Made by a program: the position numbers and the translations under genes
Assembly: GCF_057098645.1 (NCBI RefSeq)
Contig: NZ_JBXSPU010000007.1
DNA: 3,133 bases
Source: a plasmid
Direction: 5' to 3' (one strand)
The notes under the pieces: model-generated
Told to the model about the DNA's origin: nothing
What the model saw: only the letters and a program-made list of their open reading frames with translations
The model's database searches: none
Part shown: in pieces, positions 431 through 3,133 of the stretch
Position numbering within the stretch: the stretch's first letter is position 1
Layout of the letters: each line of letters begins with the position of its first letter

Positions 431-458
431 ATTTACCATAACTCCCCTTACGCGCACC
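431..458 (-). other. XerC/XerD site-specific recombination core (cer/dif-like multimer resolution site)
   Basis: Reverse complement of 431..458 reads GGTGCGCGTAA-GGGGAG-TTATGGTAAAT, i.e. 11-bp XerC arm, 6-bp central region, 11-bp XerD arm. The XerD arm is identical to the one I recall for ColE1 cer, and the XerC arm is one mismatch from E. coli dif as I recall it. It sits in a roughly 290-bp non-coding gap of a ColE1-type plasmid. Confidence 0.75.
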
Positions 459-558
459 GCTAAAACGCGCTGAACGCGATTCTGCCGCAAACACCGCAAA
501 AAGAGATGTTTTACCCAGTGAAAACCGGAAAAATGCGTCAGGACCGTTTTCAGCTCAC

Positions 559-572
559 TGCATAGCTATGCA
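559..572. repeat. Perfect 14-bp palindrome TGCATAGCTATGCA; candidate accessory (ArgR-box-like) element of the cer-like site
   Basis: Perfect palindrome seen in sequence, centred about 100 bp on the XerC-arm side of the core. This is where cer-type sites carry accessory sequences bound by ArgR/PepA. Assignment as an ARG box is inference; the half-sites (TGCAT) differ from the TGAAT consensus. Confidence 0.35.
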
Positions 573-647
573 TGAAAGTGAATGGCGATCGGTTTGGGGC
601 CTTACGGCGTTCATACCGTCTGTTTTCGACAGTTTCTCTCCGGGAAG

Positions 648-971
648 CTAATCTGCCATAAGCCTGGATAACAGGGCCCGGTGATACTCCGTAATAGCGA
701 TCAGCACCTCCGCATACTCTCTGTCCCCGACACGCTTGCCGTCGATAAAGAGTTTTTTCTGTAACGCCCCCAGTCTCATAACTTCTTTCAGTACCCGATC
801 ATCAGTCAGTGAGTTAACTTTCTTACCGAGAGCTGCCGCCCGTAAAAAACCGGAAACGGTCTTGCCGCATTCAGCAGCCCTTTTTCTGATTTCCTGGTCT
901 TCTTCTGCCGTCAGACGAACAGGGCGACTGATAGCCCGCCTGCGCGTATTACTTCCACTTCGTTTTGTCAT
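648..971 (-). CDS. mobC: MobC-family relaxosome accessory protein (ribbon-helix-helix N-terminus), 107 aa
   Basis: From track ORF 648..1061 (-). Preferred start is the internal ATG at 969..971 (MTKRSGSNTRRR...), preceded by GGAG 9 nt upstream on the minus strand. The stretch RPVRLTAEEDQEIRKRAAECGKTVSGFLRAAALGKK, followed by DDRVLKEVMRLGALQKKL, fits the MobC pattern (RHH beta-strand plus two helices, then the conserved leucine-rich helix) as I recall it. The track start at 1061 would lie inside the oriT inverted repeat. Confidence 0.7.
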   Translation of the reverse strand: MTKRSGSNTRRRAISRPVRLTAEEDQEIRKRAAECGKTVSGFLRAAALGKKVNSLTDDRVLKEVMRLGALQKKLFIDGKRVGDREYAEVLIAITEYHRALLSRLMAD

Positions 972-2092: not shown

Positions 2093-2196
2093 ACAAGTTT
2101 TGGTGACTGCGCTCCTCTTAAGCCAGTTACCGAGGTTCAGAAACTTGCCGGTTGCTGAACCTTCGAAAAACCACCTTGCCGGGTGGTTTTTTCGTT
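2093..2196 (+). ncRNA. RNAI: RNA I antisense replication inhibitor
   Basis: ACAAGTTTTGGTGACTGCGCTCCTCTTAAGCCAGTTACC... parallels pBR322 RNA I (ACAGTATTTGGTATCTGCGCTCTGCTGAAGCCAGTTACC...). It ends in the hairpin plus U-tract at 2166..2192 and is fully complementary to the 5' part of RNA II. Confidence 0.8.
2166..2192 (+). terminator. RNA I intrinsic terminator
   Basis: aaaaa-CCACC-ttgccg-GGTGG-tttttt: GC stem with U-tract, homologous in position to the ColE1 RNA I terminator. Confidence 0.7.
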
Positions 2197-2200
2197 TTTA

Positions 2201-2229
2201 AGATTACGATGGGCGCGATATGAACTCAA
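2201..2229 (-). promoter_or_regulatory. RNA II (primer) promoter: -35 TTGAGT (complement of 2224..2229), 17-bp spacer, -10 TAATCT (complement of 2201..2206)
   Basis: Minus strand reads cTTGAGTtcatatcgcgcccatcgTAATCTtaaaaacgaaaaaacc, matching the pBR322 RNA II promoter arrangement (TTGAGA, 17 bp, TAATCT) as I recall it. Confidence 0.65.
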
Positions 2230-2299
2230 GGAAATCCGCAATTAAATTATAAAAGTTTGTGGATTAATGGAAAAACTGATGTGAATCAGCTATTTATCC

Positions 2300-2328
2300 T
2301 TAAGATTTGATGTCAGATATGGTATAAT
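2300..2328 (+). promoter_or_regulatory. Candidate sigma70 promoter with extended -10 (TGgTATAAT 2320..2328; -35 TTAAGA 2300..2305, 17-bp spacer)
   Basis: Perfect TATAAT with TG at the extended -10 position, seen in sequence, in an AT-rich intergenic block. Predicted start at about 2335, pointing rightward at the small ORF and palindrome. Confidence 0.45.
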
Positions 2329-2401
2329 TAACCATTCAAATAGATGGAATAAAAAGTCAACGCTGCCATTAGAACGGCATAAGAAATAGAGGATTATGAA
2401 A

Positions 2402-2545
2402 ATGAATACTAAAGTTCTTTTTGTGAAAAAAGCCTTGAAATCAATTACTTGCGCAATTCTTTCGCTCTTACCGGCTTTAAGTCGCGCAGTAACAGAGTTA
2501 CGTAGCCTTTCGGCTGCGCGACTTAAAGCCGGTAAGAGCTTTTGA
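2402..2545 (+). CDS. Hypothetical small basic protein, 47 aa (49 aa if started at ATG 2396); not on the ORF track
   Basis: Shine-Dalgarno AGAGGA (2388..2393) is 8 nt before ATG 2402. Translation MNTKVLFVKKALKSITCAILSLLPALSRAVTELRSLSAARLKAGKSF, TGA at 2543..2545. Both arms of the perfect 26-bp inverted repeat lie inside the ORF, so it may instead be the 5' part of a structured non-coding RNA. No homolog recognised. Confidence 0.3.
   Translation: MNTKVLFVKKALKSITCAILSLLPALSRAVTELRSLSAARLKAGKSF
2464..2539. repeat. Perfect 26-bp inverted repeat (arms 2464..2489 and 2514..2539) with 24-nt spacer, followed by TTTTG
   Basis: Left arm gctcttaccggctttaagtcgcgcag; the right arm is its exact reverse complement. 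The spacer contains a small secondary hairpin (agcc-tttc-ggct, 2504..2515). Seen directly in sequence. Confidence 0.9.
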
Positions 2546-2569
2546 TTGTATCACATTTTTCCTTAAAAG

Positions 2570-3133
2570 TCAACCGGCTACCTTAAGCTCCCTGCACTTA
2601 ATCCTCCCTATAATCCCCATAACATACTCTATCGTGCAGCGTTCATAAAAGCGCCTATCGTGCCCAATAAACTCAATAAGTTCCTTTTTCTCGTTAGAGA
2701 CGATACTCAAGGCATTCATTAAAAAATTGAACTCTTTCAACATATTATTTATGGCTTGACTATGCGACTTGCAGTGGTGTTTTTTCCAAATAGGCTCATG
2801 GTGAAAAAGTCGATTCCTAAACAAAAGAACTTTATGAAACTCGTCAAACAACGCTTTAACCTTCATATCCCCCCCACCCAAAGGATTCTTCGCATGAGGA
2901 AATGTTTTTGCCTTGTTCTCTGGAGTCCAGATGTAGCACGGCCTTTGCGTATCCCTATATGGGGCATCTAACATATAAACCCAAAAGCCAAAGGTTAGAC
3001 GGCAAATAACATCATCATCCGTATACCTTACGCCACACTCATCTAGCGCTTTTTGTTTCGCATTTAAAACAAGATCCTGAGATTTCTTTGTTTGAGGTAT
3101 AGAGTCGTACCAAGCAGGCCCATGATTAGCTTT
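2570..3133 (-). CDS. Abi_2 (AbiD/AbiF-like) abortive-infection family protein with HEPN-type Rx4H motif; C-terminal 187 aa, N-terminus beyond the window
   Basis: Minus-strand frame is open from the window edge (3133) to TGA at 2570..2572; the track ORF 2570..2974 is its internally initiated part. Motifs: LTFGFWVYML, and FRNRLFHHEPIW matching the Abi_2 hallmark R-N-x-x-x-H-H-x-x-(L/I)-W, which contains the HEPN Rx4-6H signature. AT-rich codon usage differs from the backbone. Family call is from motif memory. Confidence 0.65.
   Translation of the reverse strand, partial: KANHGPAWYDSIPQTKKSQDLVLNAKQKALDECGVRYTDDDVICRLTFGFWVYMLDAPYRDTQRPCYIWTPENKAKTFPHAKNPLGGGDMKVKALFDEFHKVLLFRNRLFHHEPIWKKHHCKSHSQAINNMLKEFNFLMNALSIVSNEKKELIEFIGHDRRFYERCTIEYVMGIIGRIKCRELKVAG

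Follow-up and report, generated by a model that had tools for sequence, protein, structure and literature searches.

A predicted cer-like multimer resolution site of the NTP16 (nmr) subtype with a 6-bp central region in a 3.1-kb plasmid of Escherichia coli and Salmonella

The standard mechanism of cer has been reviewed in PMC5357621, in PMC11724359 and in a 2026 preprint by Provan et al. The central regions of plasmid Xer sites are defined as 6-8 bp (PMC2699498; PMC11724359), and in the list of Fournes et al. 2025 (PMC11724359, Sup. file 1) five out of eight characterised sites have a central region of 6 bp, namely dif, ColA (CGGATG), ColE3 (CGGGAG), CloDF13 (GGGATG) and pSC101 (GATCCA). The row for pJHCMW1 (CAGATG) in the same list also gives 6 bp, with an XerC arm misprinted with 10 bases. 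Longer spacers are listed for NTP16 (7 bp) and ColE1 (8 bp), and the 8-bp spacer of ColE1 is the outlier among the listed sites. According to the same authors, accessory-dependent recombination is possible for 28-, 29- and 30-bp sites alike, and all small-plasmid Xer sites of their survey are associated with an accessory sequence, that of NTP16 being counted among those previously characterised (PMC11724359). The potential ArgR site marked for NTP16 in Sup. file 1 is TGCATAGCTATGCAG; the other ArgR boxes marked there are TGCATAGGTATTCAT for ColE1, TGCATGGTTATGCAG for ColA and part of TGCATAGGCATGCAT for CloDF13. Two further features, phased A/T tracts in cer-like sites and, in ColE1-like plasmids, an ArgR-to-XerCD direction that is the direction of RNAII, have been described in PMC2831885. 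ColE1 cer also encodes the checkpoint RNA Rcd.

The DNA analysed here, referred to as the window, is a stretch of 3133 bp that represents a complete small plasmid of the NikA-encoding pCERC7/pU302S/NTP16 group, and the presence of RNAI at 2095-2195 makes it a ColE1-type replicon. In PMC9282650, pCERC7, pU302S and NTP16 appear as members of the family of Moran & Hall 2017 with identical NikA and a conserved oriT and without a relaxase, and the cargo adjoining the multimer resolution site is reported to vary (Moran & Hall 2017, via PMC9282650). PLSDB holds 12 records from E. coli and Salmonella that match a query of positions 380-660 at 100%, each exactly 3133 bp in length (e.g. NZ_CP041117.1). 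Outside the Xer site, the plasmid carries the following features.

189-1 continuing 3133-2571, minus strand: cargo ORF of 250 aa (WP_016249639.1, annotated as hypothetical), which spans the window ends
293-336: bidirectional terminator-like hairpin with a perfect 13-bp stem (AAAAAAGCCCACT / AGTGGGCTTTTTT) and a match in a terminator scan, in the interval that separates the Xer core from the cargo gene
344-376: second hairpin with a 10-bp stem, in the same interval
648-971, minus strand: mobA/nikA relaxosome accessory gene (Pfam NikA-like, E = 2.8e-18), directly upstream of the Xer site
1256-1450: Rop gene (Pfam, E = 3e-33)
2095-2195, plus strand: RNAI (Rfam, 95.9 bits)

The stop codon of mobA/nikA occupies 648-650. 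Its product is one residue apart from the MobA of NTP16, and the order of mobA followed by the site is common to both plasmids. Despite the NikA-like gene, no relaxase gene is annotated in the plasmid; an inverted repeat at about 1028-1067 was read by eye as a putative oriT, and the type returned by MOB-suite, 'MOBF relaxase', apparently represents a mis-typed NikA/oriT module (648-1070). The sole Pfam match of the cargo ORF is a weak one to Abi_2 (abortive-infection-like), with E = 1e-3 and thus under the curated cut-off. Just past the stop of the cargo gene, and within an annotated hypothetical ORF of 49 aa (2396-2545), lies a further, very strong hairpin at 2464-2539. Its 24-bp stem is perfect, its DNA fold amounts to -36.2 kcal/mol (z = -9.4), and TTTT comes after it. 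A 4750-bp relative carries a copy of this hairpin at 84.6% identity, and it might serve as a terminator or as a signal for single-strand initiation. When the whole window was scanned against Rfam, RNAI alone scored above threshold and there was no match at the position of Rcd. Leader and miRNA matches at 217-385 were rejected, as they remained under the gathering scores and reflect the terminator hairpins.

The Xer core of the window, GGTGCGCGTAA-GGGGAG-TTATGGTAAAT, occupies 431-458 of the minus strand and is a single match in the window, where shuffled sequences gave an expectation of 0. The core and the DNA beside its XerC arm are composed as follows.

431-441, minus strand: XerD-binding arm TTATGGTAAAT, identical to the XerD arm of ColE1 cer, CloDF13 parB and NTP16
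442-447, minus strand: central region GGGGAG of 6 bp, the predicted place of strand exchange, to which ColE3 CGGGAG and CloDF13 GGGATG are the nearest listed
448-458, minus strand: XerC-binding arm GGTGCGCGTAA, identical to the NTP16 arm and one mismatch away from that of dif (GGTGCGCATAA)
459-645, minus strand: accessory sequences of about 187 bp, the presumed PepA/ArgR wrapping region by homology to NTP16, ColE1 cer and CloDF13 parB
559-572, no strand assigned: predicted ARG box (ArgR-binding palindrome) TGCATAGCTATGCA, a perfect 14-bp palindrome with the bases and spacing of the potential ArgR site of NTP16

Taken together, we read 431-645 (minus strand), with a probability of roughly 0.88, as a cer-like multimer resolution site of the NTP16 (nmr) subtype and of the ArgR/PepA type. 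The reasons for this reading are the format of the core, the homology to NTP16, the spacing of the ARG box, the A/T tracts, the orientation of the site and its conservation across plasmids. A previous sequence-only reading of the window had already proposed a cer-like XerCD site at 431-640. Its proposal is borne out by arms and accessory DNA that match NTP16 and by alignment to cer and parB, and its span fits a core with about 180 bp of accessory DNA that fills the gap up to the mobA/nikA stop. The central region of 6 bp had been correctly read as well and had been contrasted with the 8 bp of ColE1 cer, but this spacing is not unusual, as it occurs in five of the eight listed characterised sites (PMC11724359). 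The exact core with GGGGAG was found in 23 PLSDB records and in 27 of 5426 complete E. coli genomes and is confined to the plasmid lineage of the window; it is absent from the supplementary files of Fournes et al. 2025 (PMC11724359). A literature search for GGTGCGCGTAA produced nothing but irrelevant primer matches, and the Xer site carries no annotation in the public records examined. The spacer allele GGGGAG is the sole feature particular to this lineage, and the site is otherwise an ordinary member of its family.

Over the 187 bp next to the XerC arm, the window and NTP16 are identical at 177 positions (94.7%) without indels, and the site can be aligned over its whole length with ColE1 cer and CloDF13 parB, an alignment that the sequence-only reading had proposed as a check. 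A/T tracts between the ARG box and the core are located at -92, -75, -66, -54, -44 and -7 from the XerC arm, and four of the six (-92, -66, -44 and -7) coincide with tract positions of ColE1. The orientation is also that of ColE1-like plasmids: with RNAI on the plus strand at 2095-2195, RNAII is on the minus strand, as is the site.

A perfect 14-bp palindrome about 100 bp away on the XerC side, with half-sites that differ from TGAAT, had been described from the sequence, and it is indeed present at 559-572, exactly 100 bp from the XerC arm and with TGCAT half-sites. NTP16 has the same distance of 100 bp between the end of the ARG box and the XerC arm, and the distance is 99 bp for ColE1 cer and 101 bp for CloDF13 parB. 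By itself, the palindrome is only mildly to moderately improbable: for TGCAT-N4-ATGCA with at most one mismatch, 0.11 matches are expected per shuffled window, and 20 of 200 shuffles contained at least one. It is the placement relative to the XerC arm that lends it significance. The palindrome had also been regarded as unusual, a view that has to be abandoned, as NTP16 has the same 14 bases at the same spacing, marked there as its potential ArgR site. The comparison made at the time took in only the chromosomal ARG consensus and ColE1, and left aside the cer-like family at large.

A related suggestion was that the palindrome binds a protein other than ArgR and that the accessory requirement is unlike that of canonical cer. 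It could draw on the fact that both halves are TGCAT, not TGAAT, and on the five mismatches (hand count) to the 18-bp chromosomal ARG-box consensus. However, one half of the ColE1 cer box is TGCAT, and both halves are TGCAT in the boxes of ColA and NTP16 and in the corresponding CloDF13 sequence, at the same position, which indicates that TGCAT half-sites are normal for cer-like sites. The accessory DNA is moreover of the ArgR type and the XerD arm of the cer type, and a search of the window with an ArcA-box consensus, allowing at most three mismatches, gave no match. A binding protein other than ArgR therefore appears very improbable. A scan of the window with the 18-bp chromosomal ARG consensus, allowing at most three mismatches, did not find the palindrome at 559-572 because it has five. 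We discounted this result as evidence against ArgR, as the ColE1 cer box itself has four mismatches by hand count and the consensus is hence a poor test of cer-type boxes.

To what extent the site is conserved was assessed by a sensitive search with positions 425-645, which returned 2180 PLSDB records, 519 of them covering at least 80% of the query; the homologues stem mostly from Escherichia, Salmonella, Shigella and Klebsiella. Fourteen PLSDB homologues spread over the identity range were sampled together with ColE1, CloDF13 and NTP16. Fifteen of these 17 loci gave an Xer core, and the two missed by the core pattern have a variant XerD arm (L011) or a variant XerC arm (L013). All 15 cores share an invariant XerD arm. 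TGCATAGCTATGCA is found exactly 100 bp from the XerC arm in ten of the 15 loci, TGCATAG-type variants occur at 99-101 bp in four, and the remaining one (L006) has the single-base ARG box variant ACATAGCTATGCA. The sequence-only reading had made its case dependent on a core conserved in related plasmids. This applies to the presence of the core and to the XerD arm, but not to the spacer, as the same accessory sub-family occurs with GGGGAG (6 bp), TGAGACG (7 bp) or TTAAGGGA (8 bp), and its XerC arm is either GGTGCGCGTAA or GGTGCGTACAA.

The variation on the other side of the core follows a sharp boundary. By blastn, the window is 94.7% identical to NTP16 at 431-1396 and 83.6% at 1392-2203. The homology begins exactly at 431, the outer edge of the XerD arm, and the remaining DNA, 2204-3133 and 1-430, consists of cargo specific to the lineage. 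Plasmid pMS6192D (L016) combines the accessory sequence and XerC arm of the window with the ColE1 spacer and different downstream DNA, and its breakpoint is the border between XerC arm and spacer. At the level of sequence, this breakpoint pattern suggests module exchange at the Xer core. The site marks the junction of a conserved backbone and variable cargo, and one accessory sequence found with 6-, 7- or 8-bp spacers and different cargo amounts to a natural dataset on which a role of Xer sites in the exchange of modules among small plasmids could be examined.

Such mosaics might also be expected if a strong XerC arm and a 6-bp spacer made the site act like an engineered cer/parB 'type II hybrid' or like dif, with XerCD recombining in the absence of ArgR/PepA and with no selectivity for resolution. 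Exchange between separate plasmid molecules could in that case drive the swapping of cargo beside the core. The joining of the same accessory sequence to spacers of three lengths and to different downstream DNA and the breakpoint of pMS6192D would fit this idea, as would the XerC arm GGTGCGCGTAA, which has one mismatch each to dif and psi and is nearer to dif than the XerC arms of cer, psi, parB and mwr. The engineered derivatives of Summers 1989 and of Blakely & Sherratt 1996, in which the cer spacer is cut to 6 bp, are reportedly relaxed in their accessory dependence. Nevertheless, the site has kept a complete, well conserved accessory sequence and, at the usual distance, an ARG box, and this retention implies that accessory-dependent recombination is selected for. 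Sites that have a 6-bp spacer as well as accessory sequences also occur naturally and are listed as characterised (PMC11724359), and mosaics can likewise result from rare exchanges, by Xer or by homologous recombination, at sites with full accessory dependence. We thus regard a type II hybrid- or dif-like site as quite unlikely. It is likewise unlikely that ArgR/PepA dependence is relaxed such that XerC and XerD would complete both strand exchanges and occasional inter-plasmid Xer recombination would shuffle cargo and spacers among the NikA-encoding small plasmids.

In E. coli strain 44, the chromosome (NZ_CM132959.1, 3377700-3382365; L019) contains the entire 3.1-kb plasmid between two directly oriented copies of IS26, adjoining a truncated wcaM, which looks like an IS26-mediated cointegrate. 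Xer-mediated chromosomal integration as the origin of the two chromosomal copies in this strain was rejected, as the whole plasmid lies between the two IS26 copies. In the 4750-bp relative (NZ_CP148481.1; L020), the replication/rop segment is duplicated, but the Xer site and the cargo gene are each present once, and this record may reflect either a partial dimer or an artefact of assembly.

We also compared the region that encodes Rcd in ColE1. At the position of the ColE1 Rcd stem, the window has a degenerate inverted repeat on the minus strand (469-554) with arms at 469-489 and 534-554 that are 76% complementary. RNA folding of the 87 nt upstream of the XerC arm (window 459-545, minus strand) yielded z = -1.0, no significant gain over shuffles, in contrast to -4.4 for ColE1, -3.5 for CloDF13 and -2.8 for NTP16, the weak fold of the window being due to substitutions in the outer and inner stems. 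A 15-nt motif common to ColE1 and CloDF13, GGGTGGTTTGTTGCC, is absent from the window, and a sigma-70 scan gave no minus-strand promoter-like match in the window, a scan that misses Pcer in ColE1 cer, too. Judged by folding and motif searches, an Rcd-like RNA in the window is doubtful. Possibly, the lineage has lost the Rcd checkpoint, and the checkpoint half of the ColE1 system may accordingly be missing. The degraded Rcd-type stem and the lack of annotation in the records examined might be taken to mean that the whole site is a non-functional relic, kept merely by its position between backbone and cargo. However, neither the Xer arms nor the ARG box are damaged or vary within the lineage, and plasmids of high copy number that lack active partition depend on dimer resolution, which renders a relic hardly credible.

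For a cer-like site of the ArgR/PepA type, we infer protein binding and recombination as follows. After homologous recombination has produced a plasmid dimer, host ArgR would bind the TGCATAGCTATGCA box, and ArgR and PepA would interwrap the two directly repeated accessory sequences of about 190 bp about three times. The cores bound by XerC and XerD would thereby be brought together and would be activated only when both reside on one supercoiled molecule, and this condition would explain why dimers are resolved rather than made. XerC, and possibly XerD as well given the 6-bp spacer, would then exchange strands at GGGGAG to yield monomers, and the conversion of dimers to monomers would keep the multicopy plasmid stably inherited. 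Three features could count against the cer-like reading, namely the five mismatches of the ARG box to the 18-bp chromosomal consensus, the degraded Rcd-type hairpin, and the combination of a near-dif XerC arm with a 6-bp spacer, by which the need for accessory factors could be lowered. If correct, the cer-like site would account for the monomeric state and stable inheritance of a widespread 3.1-kb cryptic plasmid of E. coli and Salmonella, and its value lies mainly in annotation.

Among the named sites, nmr of NTP16 (Salmonella Typhimurium, NC_002090, 2141-2348) is most fully shared, with the same XerC arm, XerD arm, ARG box, 100-bp spacing and upstream mobA/nikA. Its entry in PMC11724359 reads TTCACTTTCAT-TGCATAGCTATGCAG-TGAGCTGAAAGCGATCC...GCGGTGCGCGTAA-TGAGACG-TTATGGTAAAT. 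NTP16 differs from the window in its 7-bp TGAGACG spacer as opposed to the 6-bp GGGGAG, in a stronger inner Rcd-type hairpin and in the unrelated DNA past the XerD arm. ColE1 cer has the same succession of ARG box, about 100 bp, XerC arm, spacer and XerD arm, an identical XerD arm and the same orientation relative to RNAII; the TGCATAG half of the ARG box and CGCGTTTTAGC just before the XerC arm are also common to both. In contrast, its spacer is the 8-bp TTAAGGGA, its XerC arm is GGTGCGTACAA, and the Rcd region in the middle of the accessory DNA is largely different in sequence. At E 1e-5, blastn of the window against ColE1 matched the replication and rop regions, not the site.

CloDF13 parB and ColE3 resemble the window in their G-rich 6-bp spacers, GGGATG and CGGGAG, respectively. 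The ARG box of CloDF13 is of the TGCATAG..ATGCA type and that of ColE3 is TGAATAGTTATGCAG, and the ColE3-type accessory sequence (TGACGCGTTTTT..CTTTTTGCG) falls into the same sub-family as that of the window, whereas the XerC arms of CloDF13 (GGTACCGATAA) and ColE3 (GGTGCGTACAA) differ from it. With psi of pSC101 and chromosomal dif, the window shares the 28-bp core with a 6-bp spacer. However, dif uses FtsK without accessory sequences (PMC11724359), and FtsK-dependent sites of this type belong to a chromosome or a replicon above about 250 kb, whereas the window has a full accessory sequence on a 3.1-kb plasmid. Likewise, psi relies on ArcA instead of ArgR (PMC11724359), together with PepA, whereas the accessory region of the window is homologous to ArgR-type sites and its XerD arm is of the cer type, not the psi type.
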